From: Bacteroidales bacterium
GTDB lineage: Bacteria > Bacteroidota > Bacteroidia > Bacteroidales > VadinHA17
Direction of reading: 5' to 3'
Assembly: GCA_029974835.1 (NCBI GenBank)
Contig: JARKQN010000022.1
Location: forward strand, 699-64,698
Length of the DNA: 64,000 nucleotides
How positions within the stretch are numbered: the stretch's first letter is position 1; each line of letters opens with the position of its first letter. The notes beneath the pieces are model-generated. The model saw nothing but the letters and a program-made list of their open reading frames with translations, made no database searches and was not told the origin of the DNA. Below, piece by piece: positions 11,106 through 25,579 of this stretch. The position numbers and the translations under genes were made by a program.

Positions 11106-11178
11106 TGATCCCGGAGCGACTCGAACGCTCAACCAACAGAACCGGAATCTGTCATTCTATCCATTGAACTACGGGACC
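11106..11178 (-). tRNA. tRNA-Arg (anticodon CCG)
   Basis: Minus strand GGTCCCG...ACAGA-TTCCGGT-TCTGT...GAGCG-TTCGAGT-CGCTC-CGGGATC-A; -7 element TAAATTTG at 11194-11201 (minus). Confidence 0.95.
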
Positions 11179-18337: not shown

Positions 18338-18775
18338 ATGGCGACCAGTAAAAAGATCACAAGGTTCAGCCTTGATATTCCGGACGATGGATTTAATTAT
18401 TCTGTTTTTGGTTTGGTAACCTCTGAACCGGATTACAGGCTTTCATTCTCCCTTAACAGGAAGCTGAATATCAACCTAAAGAAACATGACCCCATTGAGA
18501 TTACCGGCTCCGACGGAGCAAAGATTCTGTTCAGCCGGTTTACAGATCTTTCTGACCACCCCGATGAATTTTACACCCTCGCGGTAAACAGAACAGGCAA
18601 TAAACTCTTCTCCCGGAAATATAACCAGGTCGACTACCTGTTTCTTAAAGGCGGCACCCGGGGCTCCGAAGGGTTCAATAAACTGCTTACATCCCTGCGA
18701 AACCTTGAAGGTATTACAGCCGTTTTTCATATTAAGGAAAAAGAAATCAACATTGATGCCCTTCTACCACACTAA
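18338..18775 (+). CDS. IPExxxVDY-family-like conserved Bacteroidota protein
   Basis: DYRLSFSLNRKL and QVDYLF; this position after rnc is typical of the family. Confidence 0.65.
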   Translation: MATSKKITRFSLDIPDDGFNYSVFGLVTSEPDYRLSFSLNRKLNINLKKHDPIEITGSDGAKILFSRFTDLSDHPDEFYTLAVNRTGNKLFSRKYNQVDYLFLKGGTRGSEGFNKLLTSLRNLEGITAVFHIKEKEINIDALLPH

Positions 18776-18786
18776 ATAAAACCACA

Positions 18787-19278
18787 ATGGAAAAACTCTA
18801 TTTTGACCTTACCGAACATGAGTTTTCAAAAGGAAGAAAAATACTCCTCTGGATATTCTGCTTTTCTTTCTTCCTTGCAGGTGTTGCAATCGTATATATG
18901 TATTTAATTGAACACGACCTTGCAATCCACGTATCTTATTCCATCGCGCCTTTCTCCATCAGTCTTTTTGCCGGCTTTATAGCTGTACTGGCATCAATTA
19001 AGAAAAAAAATCACTATTTTGTTATCGACGACGAGAAAATTGAGTACCGCTACGGGCTGGTAAAACCGGTACTCAGAAGTTACAGGTGGGATAACATCAA
19101 GGAAGTCCATCTTGCCCACATGAGCATTAAAGTAAGGCTTCTTCATTATGACGGCACGGTATCGGTTGTTAACCTTACATGGCTCGAAAAGAAGAAATCC
19201 TCCGCAATCAGAAAACATATATACCACGCGTCGAGGGAAAAAAACATCCCGGTTCTTAAATTCAGATCCTTTAACTGA
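18787..19278 (+). CDS. Hypothetical membrane protein (two TM helices plus possible PH-like domain)
   Basis: Two hydrophobic helices, then IDDEKIEYR..WDNIKEV. Confidence 0.7.
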   Translation: MEKLYFDLTEHEFSKGRKILLWIFCFSFFLAGVAIVYMYLIEHDLAIHVSYSIAPFSISLFAGFIAVLASIKKKNHYFVIDDEKIEYRYGLVKPVLRSYRWDNIKEVHLAHMSIKVRLLHYDGTVSVVNLTWLEKKKSSAIRKHIYHASREKNIPVLKFRSFN

Positions 19279-19310
19279 TTCTCCATATTCAGCCAATTAC
19301 CGGGCAATAT

Positions 19311-19349
19311 AAAAAAGAAGGGCCGCCGGAACCGGCGACCCACTTTTTT
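19311..19349 (-). terminator. Bidirectional intrinsic terminator, better paired on the minus strand
   Basis: Minus: GGGTCGCCG-GTTC-CGGCGGCCC-TTCTTTTTT (one U-G pair); the plus strand has a C-A mismatch and is also followed by TTTTTT. Confidence 0.75.
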
Positions 19350-19395
19350 GATAACCCTAAAACTAACCTAACCTATGAAAAAAACCTCTATATCT
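19311..19395 (-). ncRNA. Putative trans-acting small RNA (sRNA-1), divergent from rprX
   Basis: Minus strand has promoter elements, a GU-rich single-stranded region UUUUUUUCAUAGGUUAGGUUAG and an intrinsic terminator; ends approximate. Confidence 0.55.
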
Positions 19396-19399
19396 TGAT

Positions 19400-19432
19400 T
19401 TCAAAAACCGTGCCAAACTCTTTGCAAAGATA
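19400..19432 (-). promoter_or_regulatory. Sigma54-like -24/-12 site (TGGCACGGTTTTTGAA, 19415-19400) plus sigma-A -7 element (TATCTTTG, 19432-19425)
   Basis: Perfect TGGCACG; -12 is TTGA instead of TTGC; no ORF downstream, only a terminator. Confidence 0.55.
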
Positions 19433-19565
19433 AAAACAAATTATTTATTAAAAAAATTATCTGTCGTTAAATTCAATATTTAACAAATTTTTAATATCCG
19501 CTGAAAGATTTTAAGAATTCCACCCCCCTGCAGGTATGAGATTAAAGCCCAAAAAGGAACCTATT

Positions 19566-19615
19566 GTTAAAGAAAGTTAAAGTGTGTTAAAATCTTCCGG
19601 TTCGGACTACCTTTG
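19566..19615 (+). promoter_or_regulatory. rprXY promoter: three GTTAAA direct repeats at 10 bp period plus -7 element TACCTTTG
   Basis: GTTAAA at 19566, 19576 and 19586; TACCTTTG at 19608-19615. Confidence 0.55.
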
Positions 19616-19620
19616 TATTG

Positions 19621-21174
19621 ATGAGGAAAAGGACCATAGTTATCCTGGCTCTGTTCTTTTTTGTAACCATAACCGGGCTTACTCTTATCCAGCTGTCGTG
19701 GATAAAAAATGCCATTTCCATAATTGATCAGCAGTTCCGCTACCAGGCCAACAGAGTTCTGGAAAATGTTGTATCTACTCTCGAGGAGAAGGAACTGATA
19801 GAACGTATAATAAATGAAATTGACACAATAACAATTTCATCCGACGAAACTGTTCTTGATTTCCCGGCAACCTCCGGAAATATTGACAATACAGGGCTGG
19901 AGACCAGACAGTTTGAGATTCCTTCCACCGACAGAACGGAGAGTCCGGTTACCATTACAAGAAGAGGCAGGCAGATAATCATATCATCAGAAAATGACAA
20001 TTCCTATCCGGTCGAAGATTCTCCCGATACAGGAATTGAAACGGGCTCATCGGGTATCAGAAGAAGAATCACCAATAAGCTCGTATCCATTGAAGCAATA
20101 ATGGAAAGAATCTTTACCGAAATACCCGATATCAGGCAAAGGGTGAATACTTCCATGATAAGCTCGGTTATCGATGAATCCCTGAGAAATGCCGGCATCC
20201 CGCTTGATTACGAATTTGCCGTGACTTCCGGGCGTTACGGGTTAATTTCAAGAACCCCAGGATACAGCGATATTCCCGGAACAAACCGTTTTATGAGACA
20301 GCTCTTCCCGAACGACCCTGTTCCGGGCCAGAACCTTATTATAATGTATTTCCCGCGTGAAAAACAGTATAAATTCCGGCAGATAGAATTGCTGGGGGTT
20401 ATGTCGGTTTTTTTTACCCTTATGCTCCTGCTCCTCGCCACCGGAACTTTTATTGTGATCTTCCGCCAGAAAAAACTCTCTGAAATCAGGAGCGACTTTA
20501 TTCACAACATGACCCACGAACTTAAAACACCCATCTCAACAATTTCGCTGGCGGCACAGATGCTTGCTGACAAAACCATCAGCGACAACAAAAAGAATAT
20601 CGACGACCTGGCAAGAGTGGTGGCAGATGAAAGCATGAGACTCAGATATCATGTTGAAAAAGTGCTGCAGACTGCAATTTTTGAGAGGGTTAAGTTAAAA
20701 CTTAATCTTGCCGAAACAGATGTCCACTCGCTGCTGAACAAGGCTATTGAAGGTTTCAGCCTTCAGATACAGGCAGTAAACGGGAAAATAACACGCGACT
20801 TTCAGGCCAAGGATCCCGTCATTAAAATTGATGAAATACATTTCCTTAATGCAATATCCAACCTCCTCGACAATGCCATAAAATACTCAAAAGACAATAT
20901 TGACATAACAGTCGCAACCCGTTCTGCCAGGCAAAATCTCCATATTTCAGTTGAAGACAGAGGTATCGGCATTTCCAGGGAAAACATGAAGAGAATATTT
21001 GAGAAATTCTACAGGGTGCCGACAGGAGATATTCACAATGTAAAAGGTTTTGGCCTTGGCCTGAGTTACGTAAAGAAAGTGATTGAGGATCACAACGGGA
21101 AAATAAAGGTTGAAAGCCAGCCGGGAAAAGGAACAAAATTTACAGTCATAATACCTAAAATAAGTAAGCCATGA
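19621..21174 (+). CDS. rprX: Sensor histidine kinase RprX-like
   Basis: Two TM helices, [10 protein letters not shown]-box, [37 protein letters not shown]. Confidence 0.85.
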
Positions 21175-21860
21175 AAACAAAAAGGATTCTGCTTGCGGAG
21201 GATGACAGGAACCTGGGCGCACTGCTTAGCAACTACCTGAATATGAAACACTTTGAGACAACACTTTGTTCCAACGGCAAAGAGGCGCTTGAGGTATTCC
21301 GGAAAGATGCATTCGACCTCTGCATTCTTGATATCATGATGCCTGAAATTGACGGCATCACCCTGGCACGCGAACTCAGAAAAATTCAACCCGACATTCC
21401 GATAATTTTCCTGACTGCCAAGAATCTGAAAGAAGATGTCATTGAAGGCTTTAAGTCGGGTGCTGATGATTACATCACAAAGCCTTTTTCTATGGACGAG
21501 CTGATTTACCGCATAGAAGCGATACTGAGAAGGATTATTGAAAAGAAAGAATACAGGAAGGAAGATGAATACATAATCGGGGCTTACAGGTTCGATACCG
21601 TGAAACAGATACTTACCATCGGCAATGAATCAATGCAGCTTACCACTAAGGAATCAGAGCTTCTTGAACTCTTGTGCAGGCACAGGAATGAAATCCTTGA
21701 AAGAAATTACGCCCTGAGGACAATATGGATTGATGACAATTATTTCAATGCGAGAAGCATGGACGTCTATATTACCAAACTGCGCAAATACCTGAAAAAA
21801 GATCCGTCGGTAAAAATTCTAAATGTGCACGGAAAAGGCTACAAGCTTCTTGCAGAATAA
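21171..21860 (+). CDS. rprY: OmpR-family response regulator RprY-like
   Basis: Receiver domain (LAEDD, DIMMP, FLTAK, KPFS) and winged HTH ([21 protein letters not shown]). Confidence 0.88.
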
Positions 21861-21940
21861 ATAACCCCGGCGTTCGTGCCAGGGCATATTTATTAAGGTT
21901 AGGTTGAAGGGTTAAATTCTTATTTTATTCCGGATTTAAC
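21857..21940 (-). ncRNA. Putative small RNA (RNA-2) or long lepA 3' UTR, complementary to sRNA-1
   Basis: Minus-strand terminator CCCTGGC-ACGAAC-GCCGGGG-TTATTTATT; contains UAACCCU-UC-AACCUAACCU; weak sigma54-like TGGCGTACTTTTTAAA at 21957-21942. Confidence 0.4.
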
Positions 21941-22026
21941 CTTTAAAAAGTACGCCAAGGTATCAAAAAAAAATTATCCTGCAAATATTTCGGGCCTGAA
22001 TAGAAAAAGTCTTTTCTTATTTTGAT

Positions 22027-23814
22027 TTATTCCAGTTTAAGTACTGCCAGAAAGGCCTGCTGTGGCACCTGAACGTTCCCGACCTGTCTCATTCTCTTCT
22101 TGCCTTTTTTCTGCTTTTCAAGAAGCTTTCTCTTCCTTGTTATATCCCCGCCGTAACATTTGGCTGTCACATCCTTCCGCACTGCCTTAACCGTTTCCCT
22201 CGCTATTATTTTTGCCCCGATGGCAGCCTGTATGGCAATCTCGAACTGCTGCCGCGGGATAAGCTCCTTCAGTTTAACGCACATCTTGCGGCCAAAGTCG
22301 TATGCATGACTTCTGTGAATTAGCGTTGAGAGGGCATCGACCATTTCACCGTTCAGCAGTATATCGAGCCTTACAAGGTCGGCCTCCTTAAATGCTGTAT
22401 AGTAATAATCGAATGAGGCATAACCTTTTGAGATGCTCTTGAGTTTATCGTAGAAATCGAAAACTATCTCGGCGAGAGGCATCTCAAATGTTATCTCAAC
22501 ACGGTCGCGGGTCAGGTAAACCTGGTTTCGCAGTGTTCCCCTTTTATCTATGCACAGTTTCATTATTGAACCGACATAATCAACATGAGTGATGACCTGG
22601 GCAATGATATAGGGTTCCTCAATACGGTCGATCATTGTAACGGGTGGAAGACCTGACGGGTTATGCACCTCCATTTCCTCCCCTTTCTTTGTATACACCC
22701 GGTACGAAACGTTTGGCACGGTTGTGATTACATCCATGTCGAATTCGCGGTCGAGCCTTTCCTGTATAATCTCCATATGGAGCAGCCCAAGGAAGCCGCA
22801 TCTGAAACCGAATCCGAGGGCGGCTGACGATTCCGGCACAAATGAGAGGGCAGCGTCATTGAGTTGCAGCTTCTCTATCGAAGATTTAAGATCTTCATAG
22901 TCATCGGCATCAACAGGGTATATGCCGGCGAATACCATCGGCTTCACTTCCTCAAAACCTGAAATTGCTTCGCTGCATGGGTTATCGACGTGCGTAATAG
23001 TATCGCCTACCCTTACCTCGGAAGACTCCTTGATGCCTGAAATTATGTACCCCACATCGCCTGTCCCGAGAAACTGGCGAGGCTGCAGTTTTAGTTTCAG
23101 TACTCCGACTTCGTCGGCATCATATTCCCTTCCTGTACTGAAGAATTTGACATGGTCTCCCGTCCGTATTGAACCGTTTACGATCTTAAAATATGCGATA
23201 ATCCCCCTGAAGGGATTGAAAACTGAATCAAAAATAAGGGCCTGGAGCGGGGCCTCGGGGGATCCGGAAGGAGGCGGTATTTTTGTAACGATACGTTTCA
23301 GAATCTCATCAACGCCCATTCCTGTTTTTGCGCTTGCCTCAATTATGTCTTCTCTCCTGCATCCTGTAAGATCAACTATCTGATCCTTAACTTCCTCAGG
23401 CATGGCATTAGCCATGTCCATCTTGTTGAGAACGGGAATTATCTCAAGGTCATGTTCAAGTGCCATGTAAAGGTTTGAGATAGTCTGGGCCTGTATTCCC
23501 TGTGTGGCATCAATCACCAGCAGGGCTCCCTCGCATGCTGCTATGGAGCGTGACACTTCATAGGAGAAATCCACATGCCCGGGAGTGTCAATAAGATTCA
23601 GAATGTATAATGTACCTTCATGGAGGTATTCCATCTGAATTGCATGACTCTTGATTGTGATGCCCCTCTCCTTTTCAAGGTCCATGTTGTCGAGCACCTG
23701 GTCGTGAAATTCCCTTTCTGAAAGTGTTTTCGTTTTTTCAAGAAGGCGGTCGGCCAGGGTGCTTTTACCATGGTCGATATGGGCAATAATGCAGAAGTTA
23801 CGGATGTTTTTCAT
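22027..23814 (-). CDS. lepA: Elongation factor 4 (LepA)
   Basis: [52 protein letters not shown]; -7 element TATATTTG at 23841-23848. Confidence 0.97.

Positions 23815-23932: not shown

Positions 23933-25579
<1,647 letters not shown>

Follow-up and report, generated by a model that had tools for sequence, protein, structure and literature searches.

The closest described counterparts of the locus reported here are the FopS (Rfam RF04319)/GibS small RNAs (sRNAs) of Bacteroides thetaiotaomicron. According to the accessible part of PMC11697453, FopS acts at the 5′ start regions of mRNAs, FopS-14 is derived from a 3′ UTR, the only FopS antagonist described is the RRM-1 protein RbpB, and Bacteroides has no homologs of classical RNA chaperones. 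Table 1 of a 2026 review, in its accessible part, gives seven characterised sRNAs for gut commensals, FopS among them; the word 'sponge' has no occurrence in that text, and our literature search found no sponge for any Bacteroidota sRNA. FopS RNAs are 65–70 nt long; an unstructured 5′ region precedes their single Rho-independent terminator, an architecture shared by the first of the two RNAs described below.

Enterobacterial decoys of sRNAs include 3′ETS-leuZ and the chb decoy of ChiX, and sRNAs derived from 3′ UTRs, such as DapZ and MicL, arise from an internal promoter or by processing. Some two-component systems have adjacent or dependent sRNAs that control outer-membrane proteins, OmpR with OmrA/B and MicF, and CpxR with CpxQ. 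SroC is likewise a decoy, a sponge of the enterobacterial sRNA GcvB, according to the accessible part of PMC4474525.

The locus lies in a window of 64,000 nt from a Bacteroidales bacterium, and its features are collected in the table. On the plus strand, TAACCCT-AAAACT-AACCTAACCT (19352–19374) stands to the left of a two-component operon and AGGTTAGGTT-GA-AGGGTTA (21896–21914) to its right. The earlier note had read these as the same two blocks (10 + 7 nt) in inverted orientation, and both a re-reading of the sequence and a pattern search agree. The pattern TAACCCT-N0–12-AACCTAACCT has two matches in the window, one per strand, and none in 100 shuffles, a comparison to be read in the light of the pattern's post hoc definition; the 10-mer alone is unremarkable (four matches with at most one mismatch against 3.73 expected, and four or more in 57 of 100 shuffles). 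Two minus-strand hairpins with U-rich tails had also been claimed, and the terminator scan and the folds place them as described: one runs from 19341 to 19320, with nine pairs (eight G-C) and the tail TTCTTTTTTA, and the other from 21885 to 21864, with eight pairs (six G-C) and the tail TATTTATTCT. The scan returned 7 sites in 4 kb, compared with 4.6 ± 2.3 in shuffles, and in both hairpins a plus-strand C-A mismatch corresponds to a G-U pair in the minus-strand fold.

Table. Features of the locus in window coordinates; position p of sRNA-1 corresponds to coordinate 19387 − p
Feature	Coordinates	Strand	Basis and remarks
sRNA-1	19308..19393	-	FopS-like trans-acting small RNA (predicted), ~80–90 nt; Rfam match, blastn, alignment A2
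Single-stranded 5′ region of sRNA-1 (positions 1–42)	19345..19386	-	Unpaired in minimum-free-energy fold; invariant columns
sRNA-1 terminator hairpin (19341–19320) and U tail	19310..19341	-	Terminator scan, fold, covariation
Conserved upstream element TTTGGCACGGTTTTTGA	19401..19417	-	TTTGGCA invariant in 30-sequence alignment
TATCTTTG	19425..19432	-	Perfect match to Bacteroidota -7-type box TAnnTTTG
Sensor histidine kinase (rprX of the earlier note)	19618..21174	+	Pfam HisKA and HATPase_c; NCBIfam matches generic kinase only
OmpR-family response regulator, RprY-like	21171..21860	+	Pfam Response_reg and Trans_reg_C
RNA-2	21857..21958	-	Candidate decoy of ~100 nt that closes the lepA 3′ UTR; 5′ end inferred; alignment A1
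RNA-2/lepA terminator hairpin (21885–21864) and U-rich tail	21857..21885	-	Terminator scan; convergent with the end of rprY
Anti-seed UAACCCU-UC-AACCUAACCU	21896..21914	-	Predicted to pair with sRNA-1 positions 29–35 and 13–22
RNA-2 5′ hairpin GGUUAAAU / AUUUAACC	21910..21941	-	Fold; hides part of the UAACCCU block
TTTTTTTG	21964..21971	-	Corresponds, in degenerate form, to the box TAnnTT(A/T)G before RNA-2 in relatives
lepA (EF4)	22027..23814	-	Pfam GTP_EFTU and LepA_C

The left RNA, sRNA-1, was matched by blastn in 36 of 36 same-genus genomes, and its core is present in 108 of 120 sampled relatives of the genus, mostly as one copy and in a few as two. Conservation begins at AUAUAGAGG, and alignment A2 contains 33 consecutive invariant columns upstream of the hairpin in all 30 sequences. 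The 5′ region, whose positions 1–37 are unpaired in the fold, contains UUUUUUUCAU (complementary to a start codon), AGGUUAGGUUAG and AGGGUUA. The terminator (−23.4 kcal/mol, z −3.19) shows compensatory changes in four of seven consensus pairs, with G-U pairs forming on the minus strand; it is bidirectional, also ending the plus-strand gene at 18787–19278.

A cmscan against Rfam, one of the checks that the earlier note had proposed, aligned sRNA-1 (19385–19308) with the full-length FopS model; its score of 36.4 bits (E 0.007 when 4.3 kb were searched, 0.0005 for 301 nt) is below the gathering threshold of 56 bits, and nothing in the genome scored above the cut-off. This is the single FopS match in the genome at E < 0.1; a weak possible paralogue, degenerate and located at G000:C125, scores 17.8 bits. 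sRNA-1 and FopS share GU-UUUUUCAU-G...UUAG-UUUA-GGUUA-AAAA in the cmscan alignment; within the FopS R1/R1′ seed (consensus positions 1–21), GU-UUUUUCAU-G and UUAG align, while the middle differs and sRNA-1 carries a 5-nt insertion relative to the model. Unlike FopS, which has 12–15 paralogues per genome in the accessible text of PMC11697453, sRNA-1 is single-copy or occasionally tandem, occupies a fixed place beside an RprY-like two-component operon, is longer (~80–90 nt), is preceded by a TGGCAC-N5-TTGA element and resides in a host outside the Bacteroidaceae. By its conservation and structure, sRNA-1 is a genus-wide, single-copy and distant relative of Bacteroides FopS/GibS that is presumably transcribed, so the left RNA has a precedent where the earlier note knew of no described system. 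Covariance-model matches were obtained in only 2 of ~147 other sampled families of the order. Tandem FopS-like copies occur in six genomes (G025, G033, G029, G012, G062 and G070).

Several promoter types would fit the region upstream of sRNA-1. The element TTTGGCACGGTTTTTGA resembles a sigma-54 −24/−12 site (TGGCACG-N4-TTGA), and most of the 30 sequences keep it as TGGCAYG-N4-TTG(A/T). Measured against TGGCAC-N5-TTGC(A/T), the −12 C is replaced at sRNA-1; an rpoN gene is present in the genome. Because such motifs are as frequent genome-wide as expected (46 sites vs 43), the sigma-54 reading is only one of the options, and another possibility is that a regulator binds TTTGGCACGGTTTTTGA, its site overlapping with an xAnnTTTG −7-like box. 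A canonical −33/−7 promoter also fits: TATCTTTG, for which most of the 30 aligned sequences have TATMTTTG, could supply the −33 TTTG for the downstream box. The Bacteroidota −7 consensus TAnnTTTG is used here as quoted in the accessible parts of PMC7366714, PMC11697453 and a preprint. Both copies of TGGC-N4-TTTTT, noted earlier upstream of each RNA, are present; the left copy is conserved, whereas the right one (21958–21946) has no counterpart in the relatives' sequences.

The right RNA, RNA-2, was far less readily traced. With the RNA-2 region as the query, blastn returned no homologue in the 36 same-genus genomes, only spurious matches of at most 38 bits, and its relatives were found via syntenic spacers. 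Alignment A1 comprises 31 genomes. The covariance model R2 recovered RNA-2 in 51 of 121 genus genomes (E ≤ 1.1e-5), with one copy in each, on the sRNA-1 contig and ~2.5–2.8 kb away wherever this was cross-checked. RNA-2 was found in only ~40–50% of the genus genomes, and more than half of those that keep sRNA-1 gave no RNA-2 match; cmscan assigned it to no Rfam family. Its terminator shows compensation in five of nine consensus pairs, and 17 alignment cells hold minus-strand G-U pairs, in place of which the plus strand would have mismatches. At the position of the 5′ hairpin, which we judged from per-sequence folds, the relatives form a GGG...CCCU hairpin (MAFFT leaves the G-rich arm unaligned), and the unpaired probability of the CCCU block is below 0.5 in 26 of 30 RNA-2 sequences. 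The earlier proposal of two minus-strand RNAs holds in that both behave as conserved minus-strand elements, each with a covarying terminator, as judged from alignments.

RNA-2 ends 142–170 nt past the lepA stop codon at a terminator common to both, and only 13 of 31 genomes have, after the lepA stop and ahead of the RNA-2 box, even a weak hairpin with a T-run. With its terminator shared with lepA and none that is strong in between, RNA-2 has the predicted layout of a 3′-UTR-derived sRNA, and the lepA transcript probably runs on into it. In the long form of the locus, a conserved TAnnTTAG box, preceded by an A-tract, lies ~95 nt ahead of the RNA-2 terminator; the relatives' version reads AAAAAA-N-TTAnnTTAG, and in G005 it is TATTTTTG. 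We infer that this box acts as a promoter, and RNA-2 in the clade of this genome probably has its own promoter as well, like 3′-UTR-derived sRNAs with an internal promoter.

Contigs from RNA libraries (seven runs listed, four mapped, all as unstranded contigs) cover 19250–19441, including the sRNA-1 core, with bin mean word depths of ~4–14 compared with at most 3 over the two-component operon. The contigs of the four mapped runs give nothing over 21842–22100 and are neutral on RNA-2, since strand and ends cannot be read from them. Sludge and biofilm are the sources of the runs in which parts of the locus occur.

The response regulator scores 359.1 bits against NCBIfam RespRegRprY, whose cut-off is 370, and 185.6 bits against the next family. 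As in the OmpR and CpxR systems, an envelope-type OmpR-family regulator adjoins an sRNA whose predicted targets are mRNAs of outer-membrane transporters; a link from the RprY-like regulator to either RNA is conjectural. The accessible part of PMC3646045 gave no RprY binding motif. Two RRM_1 proteins are encoded in the genome; the FopS partner RbpB is of this class.

The RNA-2 core CUAACCUAA is mostly unpaired (predicted unpaired probability of at least 0.5 in 24 of 31 genomes) and complementary to UUAGGUUAG of sRNA-1, with predicted pairing to positions 16–24 in the relatives. The nine core columns in 31 genomes make 279 cells, of which 256 form Watson-Crick pairs, 15 form G-U pairs and 8 do not match, counts that are not independent events because the sequences are related. 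Six of the nine columns are free of mismatches, and all 13 substitutions in the CCC block are C→U. Besides the promoter-like box and the terminator, the anti-seed is the only conserved block of RNA-2. Complementarity to the invariant sRNA-1 seed is kept across species whose flanks are otherwise unalignable, in line with the earlier expectation; the conserved part, however, is the 9-nt core with CCCU and not the 10 + 7 arrangement. CCCU is mostly paired within RNA-2, so its conservation may reflect intramolecular pairing. Pairing was lengthened to 10–12 bp in the small clade that this genome forms with G134 and G078 (support 98/95), and the predicted 10 + 7 pairing is a derived state of this clade. 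Two-sided covariation is invisible because sRNA-1 is invariant.

Both RNAs might nevertheless be real and act independently, their complementarity being a coincidence or the relic of an old inverted duplication of an sRNA gene. The duplex energies improve only modestly on shuffles and lie close to the chance range (median z −1.75 per genome; the observed value is reached by 817 of 9300 dinucleotide shuffles), cofolding energies are matched or exceeded in 61 of 930 shuffles, and the RNA-2 site ranks 215 of the 4069 sites that were seeded by 8-mers and ordered by duplex energy in its own genome. Among 13 genomes without the exact core or with a variant core, we found six seed variants, of which only G113 has RNA-2; its seed change (G24→A) is uncompensated, and there are two more mismatches in its core. 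Many genomes can do without RNA-2, and FopS-like sequences do duplicate, as the tandem copies and the possible G000:C125 paralogue illustrate. Against this, an estimate of ~1e-4 applies to a chance match in which the only conserved 9-mer of a neighbouring RNA complements the 42-nt seed; a relic would be expected to decay like its unalignable flanks; the core substitutions lean to those that are G-U-compatible on the minus strand (15 vs 8); and the pairing was lengthened in one clade. On balance, we consider independent RNAs unlikely. The complementarity is maintained in evolution, with G113 as a counter-example.

A decoy should also look like the sRNA's mRNA targets. In this genome, TAACCCT-N1–9-YTAACCT occurs at three sites besides the antisense of the sRNA gene (~0.5 expected from a composition estimate), namely RNA-2 and two positions upstream of SusC-like genes. 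The earlier suggestion that RNA-2 mimics targets thereby gains support in silico, its two-block site also standing in two SusC-like mRNA leaders. Duplexes of −28 kcal/mol or lower were predicted for 3 of 25 SusC-like leaders vs 7 of 600 background ORFs, while the overall energy shift of SusC-like leaders relative to background was not significant (Mann-Whitney p 0.07). Throughout the genus, CTAACCTAACC-N2–20-ATGA has 37 matches vs 10 for the reversed control; three of 30 fetched CTAACCTAACC loci are the sRNA gene itself, and six of the other 27 lie just upstream of SusC-like genes. This predicted complementarity to SusC-like start regions and leaders is a likeness to FopS as reported in the accessible text of PMC11697453. 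RNA-2 carries a site that is complementary to the sRNA-1 seed and resembles its predicted mRNA targets.

Two other searches were set aside. The relaxed pattern TAACCCT-N1–9-YTAACCTB gave mostly noise genus-wide (~80 matches vs ~57 in the reversed control), and the order FecR-[motif]-SusC appeared only at G000:C7 and G101:C80 among 30 of its loci. A fixed-register start-codon scan that allowed G-U pairs was uninformative (1748 matches, mainly AUG-purine-rich starts).

Our main reading, to which we assign a probability of roughly 0.5, is that RNA-2 is a target-mimic decoy of sRNA-1. The sequences show conservation, structure, complementarity and likeness to target sites; transcription of both RNAs, their pairing in vivo, the direction of control and any link to RprXY are presumed. 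The invariant, unstructured 5′ region of sRNA-1 would pair with the leaders or start regions of some SusC-like transporter mRNAs, and perhaps also with other envelope or translation genes. RNA-2 would present a copy of the target site, (UAA)CCCU-N-CUAACCUAA, between its 5′ hairpin and its terminator, pair with sRNA-1 positions 13/16–24 and 29–35, block the 3′ half of the seed and thereby titrate or destabilise sRNA-1, which would couple SusC-type regulation to the transcription of lepA and RNA-2. As in SroC-type sponges, a target-like site within an mRNA-derived RNA would sequester a trans-acting sRNA and create cross-talk between mRNAs; SroC-type sponges, unlike the present pair, are found in Proteobacteria and act with Hfq and RNase E.

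The direction of control could also be reversed, the anti-seed being a site in the lepA 3′ UTR through which sRNA-1 alters lepA mRNA stability or 3′-end processing, so that lepA is a target and not a sponge. In an older short form, found in seven further genomes from both major clades, the core comes straight after the lepA stop and leaves no room for a promoter, and a robust lepA terminator ahead of RNA-2 is missing, with only the weak candidates in 13 of 31 genomes. In four relatives without RNA-2, moreover, CUAACCUAACC stands in the leader of a 187-aa ORF read as frr (a translation factor), a gene not found in the 92%-complete assembly of this genome. These observations would suit a lepA target. 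The TAnnTTAG box and A-tract of the long form suggest a separate transcript, however, FopS acts at 5′ start regions in the accessible account of PMC11697453, and the resemblance to SusC leader sites is equally compatible with mimicry. We regard this reversal as quite unlikely.

It is very improbable that the hairpins only end the plus-strand genes (18787–19278 and rprY) and that the blocks match by chance within AT-rich spacers. Both hairpins do fold on the plus strand too, followed by T-rich tails, and the 10-mer alone is at chance frequency; yet 33 invariant bases precede the left hairpin in 30 genomes and coincide with the FopS match, RNA-2 was recovered by a covariance model in 51 of 121 genomes, and the G-U pairs of both stems favour the minus strand. 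Hardly credible is a DNA-level inverted repeat, whether recombinase sites that invert the 2.5-kb rprXY segment or paired operators (e.g. for RprY), as suggested by blocks inverted around an operon and by short ATnTTTG repeats upstream of sRNA-1 that could be response-regulator boxes, since A→G or C→T changes between the arms preserve RNA pairing and break DNA identity (e.g. in G078 and G065), Pfam annotation shows no recombinase gene near the locus, 79 of 80 loci share one gene order and no inversion was seen, no read or contig joining 19352–19374 to 21896–21914 in inverted configuration was seen, and the left arm lies inside a FopS-like RNA.

Post-transcriptional control in Bacteroidota is poorly mapped. 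The locus extends the range of FopS-like sRNAs to another genus of the order, an environmental one, and it indicates that a FopS-like sRNA can be a single syntenic copy beside a two-component system. It also provides a testable RNA sponge candidate with a defined 9–12-nt interaction. More tentatively, a dedicated decoy in the lepA 3′ UTR may set the threshold for FopS-like activity on SusC; it would be the first RNA-level sRNA antagonist in Bacteroidota, a phylum that lacks Hfq and ProQ, and the fixed arrangement around an RprY-type envelope-stress operon would tie transporter synthesis to translation status and envelope signalling. If the decoy reading is true, sponge-type cross-talk would work without Hfq-type chaperones, and lepA expression would be tied to the control of polysaccharide uptake.

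sRNA-1 and RNA-2, the two minus-strand RNAs proposed in the earlier note as an sRNA and its sponge, flank a two-component operon (table). The order of sRNA-1, kinase, regulator and lepA was conserved in all 20 loci spanning the entire region, and the spacer was bordered by the RprY and LepA ends in 79 of 80 fetched loci; in the exception (L127), LepA is absent from the piece taken. In NCBIfam the regulator scores highest against RprY, with 359.1 bits (cut-off 370); the kinase has generic matches only, and 'rprX' is therefore the earlier note's name alone.

Features of the sRNA-1/RNA-2 region and its surroundings
Feature	Position	Strand	Evidence
tRNA	11106-11178	-	60.3 bits; the only Rfam match over gathering score in the entire window
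fabF, rnc	left of sRNA-1	+	Pfam, NCBIfam
Small conserved gene, IPExxxVDY family	18338-18775, between rnc and sRNA-1	+	Pfam, NCBIfam; 51.2 bits, above cut-off; conserved in one same-genus relative
Small conserved gene, weak STM3941-family match	18787-19278	+	Pfam, NCBIfam; 27.1 bits, below cut-off; conserved in the same relative
Left RNA (sRNA-1)	19393-19308, between small genes and histidine kinase	-
Histidine kinase	19618-21174	+	Pfam; NCBIfam generic
OmpR-family regulator	21171-21860	+	Pfam; NCBIfam RprY
Right RNA (RNA-2)	~21958-21857, between regulator and lepA	-
lepA	22027-23814	-	Pfam, NCBIfam
groEL	beyond lepA	-	Pfam, NCBIfam

Judged by its sequence, sRNA-1 is a conserved RNA with the anatomy of FopS, listed by Rfam as a 'family of paralogous sRNAs' of Bacteroides. 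Its minus-strand region 19385-19308 aligned to the full FopS model (36.4 bits, gathering score 56; E = 0.007 when 4.3 kb was searched and 0.0005 when 301 nt was searched), and both RNAs contain GU-UUUUUCAU-G, UUAG-UUUA-GGUUA-AAAA and a terminator. The first ~37 nt are predicted to be unpaired. Blastn matched the region in all 36 same-genus genomes and gave weak partial matches in only 2 of 24 genomes from the order's other families, while the core pattern is present in 108 of 120 sampled genus relatives. In a 30-genome alignment, 33 consecutive columns are invariant (UUUUUUCAUAGGUUAGGUUAGUUUUAGGGUUAU) and the terminator varies in sequence, showing G-U pairs and compensation at 4 of the 7 consensus pairs. 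Unlike FopS, sRNA-1 scores under the Rfam threshold and is not multicopy: the source genome has one copy and a few relatives have tandem duplicates. It adds a divergent new member to a known kind of sRNA. According to the FopS study (PMC11697453), FopS blocks translation of SusC-type mRNAs via its 5′ 21 nt, is antagonized by the RRM protein RbpB and is conserved within Bacteroidaceae. The source genome encodes two RRM_1 proteins.

Tandem duplicates were seen at L025 and L037 (G033, G025) and in G029, G012, G062 and G070. In G033 and G025, the hairpin of copy 1 has no U-run and copy 2, which begins 8 nt past it, has no upstream TGGCA element, which suggests that the second copy is made by read-through and processing. 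R1, the covariance model built from the 30-genome alignment of sRNA-1, found weaker relatives in only 2 other genomes among 150 sampled across the order. One match (L142:1501-1582, in G148 of another family) lies precisely opposite the leader and start (MKKLSF...) of an ORF with a signal peptide, in antisense orientation, and may be a cis-antisense family member or merely a target-like leader next to a terminator. In the source genome, C125 carries UCAUAGGUUGGUUAGGUUAGUAUGG, a strong hairpin and a U-run (~25135-25200, plus strand; L224:1501-1565), and L201 (G078) is similar. These elements, a possible second, truncated sRNA-1-like gene, score only 17.8 and 16.6 bits against R1 (E = 0.02–0.03); the 119-aa ORF opposite the C125 element is probably spurious.

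Upstream of sRNA-1, relatives keep TATMTTTG and, 15 nt downstream, TTTGGCAYG-N4-TTTG(A/T). The latter matches a sigma-54 -24/-12 site save for the -12 C, and the genome has rpoN; another possible reading of it is a -33 TTTG with an xAnnTTTG -7 box. Genome-wide, the sigma-54-like element occurs at chance frequency (46 versus 43 expected).

RNA-2 gave no Rfam match and no blastn homologue in relatives, and its family was defined from 80 rprY-lepA spacers (79 relatives and the source genome). A long form of 140–270 nt occupies 31 spacers and reads, on the minus strand, an A-tract with a TAnnTT(A/T)G box, a variable G-run segment, (UAA)YCCU, 3–5 nt and AUCUAACCUAA, and ends in a terminator and its U-run. 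In 7 spacers with a short form, the core, the conserved 9 nt of the stretch complementary to the sRNA-1 5′ region (the anti-seed), directly follows the lepA stop and precedes the terminator. The remaining 42 have neither form and are very short or carry GC-rich palindromic inserts. The palindromes (L066, L110, L073, L081, L087, L092, and L156/L157 from G119 and G087), of type CCCCCTAAAGGGGG / CCTCCTCGTGGAGGAGG, look like REP-type insertions. The spacer of L108 (G128) has a tandem (CAACCT)x3 at the anti-seed's place in other genomes, and the sRNA-1 of G128 has an additional U within its UUUU spacer. In the RNA-2 terminator, 5 of 9 pairs are compensated, with 17 minus-strand G-U cells. The RNA-2 covariance model matched a single copy in 51 of 121 genus genomes (E <= 1.1e-5); in those places that were cross-checked against sRNA-1 coordinates, it lies on the contig of sRNA-1 and ~2.5–2.8 kb from it. 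Weaker matches elsewhere in 14 more genomes look like noise.

On a tree built from the final 600 nt of lepA (74 rows, omitting 5 with spacers <12 nt and 1 with insufficient lepA sequence), the long forms all fall within a single one of the two major clades, short forms are found in either clade, and many element-less rows are nested among rows with the element. Because of this distribution and nesting, the tree indicates that the lepA-tail anti-seed predates the long form and was repeatedly lost. A rival reading makes lepA a target of sRNA-1, not the carrier of a decoy.

With sRNA-1 numbered from the first G of GGUUUUUUU (position p = window coordinate 19387-p), the RNA-2 core CUAACCUAA is complementary to UUAGGUUAG at positions 16–24, and its CCCU to AGGG at 29–32. 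Across 9 core columns and 31 genomes (279 cells), 256 cells are Watson-Crick, 15 G-U and 8 mismatched; 6 of the 9 columns have no mismatch, and in the CCC columns each of the 13 substitutions is C->U. When RNA-2 is folded alone, the core is unpaired (probability >= 0.5) in 24 of 31 genomes. CCCU mostly pairs with the G-run that precedes it (probability of being unpaired < 0.5 in 26 of 30), so its conservation may be intramolecular. A longer register of 10–12 bp, arising partly from A->G changes that preserve U-G pairs, is seen in the source genome and in the two relatives closest to it (G134 and G078; support 98/95).

Alternatively, sRNA-1 and RNA-2 may be independent of each other, and several results count against the decoy reading. 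The energetic gain over dinucleotide shuffles is modest (median z -1.75; 817 of 9300 shuffles reach the observed duplex energy); cofolding gives a median gain of -17.5 versus -11.1 kcal/mol for shuffled bodies, with 61 of 930 shuffles reaching the observed value. Among 4069 seeded sites in the source genome the RNA-2 site comes 215th, and G113, which alone combines an altered seed (G24->A) with an RNA-2, shows no compensation.

The terminator scan recovered both proposed minus-strand hairpins (19341->19320, tail TTCTTTTTTA; 21885->21864, tail TATTTATTCT). Their supposed full pairing on the minus strand only is borne out by a plus-strand C-A mismatch that becomes a minus-strand G-U pair in each, but the plus strand also folds both, with T-rich tails, which makes them bidirectional terminators. 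The inverted blocks beside them were found as described, the plus strand reading TAACCCT-AAAACT-AACCTAACCT at 19352-19374 and AGGTTAGGTT-GA-AGGGTTA at 21896-21914. This two-block pattern, defined post hoc after the data were seen, occurs twice in the 64-kb window, once on each strand, and in 0 of 100 shuffles; the 10-mer by itself is at chance frequency (4 matches with <=1 mismatch versus 3.73 expected). A third rival holds that the elements are plain terminators; a fourth, a repeat acting at the DNA level, is disfavoured, as the arms differ by G-U-type changes and gene order is constant.

The RNA-2 site also resembles sites upstream of two SusC-like genes. Besides the sRNA gene's own antisense strand, the strict motif TAACCCT-N1-9-YTAACCT has 3 sites in the source genome (~0.5 expected from composition): RNA-2; C7:63280, which has a FecR anti-sigma gene on one side and a SusC-like gene (STN, CarbopepD_reg_2, Plug) on the other; and C28:19832, within the leader of a different SusC-like gene. 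The C7 SusC-like gene (63452-66895) falls into two ORFs (746 and 393 aa); possible causes are a stop, a frameshift and an error of assembly. A looser two-block search gave mostly noise. When regions -200..+30 of the 25 CarbopepD_reg_2 genes above cut-off were scored against sRNA-1, 3 reached predicted duplex energies of <= -28 kcal/mol (7 of 600 background ORFs) and 2 of <= -30 (1 of 600), with no shift in the overall energy distribution (p 0.07). In a third SusC-like leader, CUAACCUAACC lies at -22..-12 and CUAUGAGAAAA covers the start codon. Genus-wide, CTAACCTAACC-N2-20-ATGA gave 37 matches versus 10 for the reversed control. Among 30 fetched loci, 3 are the sRNA gene; of the remaining 27, 6 immediately precede SusC-like genes and 4 fall within the leader of a 187-aa ORF read as frr. 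These putative frr leaders (L211, L221, L223, L226; G003, G124, G099, G076) carry GUCUAACCUAACC 8 nt before the start codon, preceded by a TATTTTTG box; at least three of the four genomes (G003, G099, G076) have no RNA-2 at lepA, and frr was not found in the source genome's assembly.

From these sequence relationships we infer the transcription, pairing and direction of control. sRNA-1 would act as FopS does on a subset of SusC-like mRNAs. RNA-2 would be transcribed together with lepA, and probably from its own box as well, and would present the same site in an accessible stretch, competing for sRNA-1 positions 13/16–24 and 29–35. The outcome would be titration of sRNA-1 or coupled decay.

Sponges of sRNAs are well known in Proteobacteria. 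We found none for Bacteroidota in open-access main texts, and the word 'sponge' occurs 0 times in a 2026 review of commensal sRNAs (PMC13750123). The decoy, if true, would be a variant of a known mechanism, in a phylum for which that mechanism has no description.
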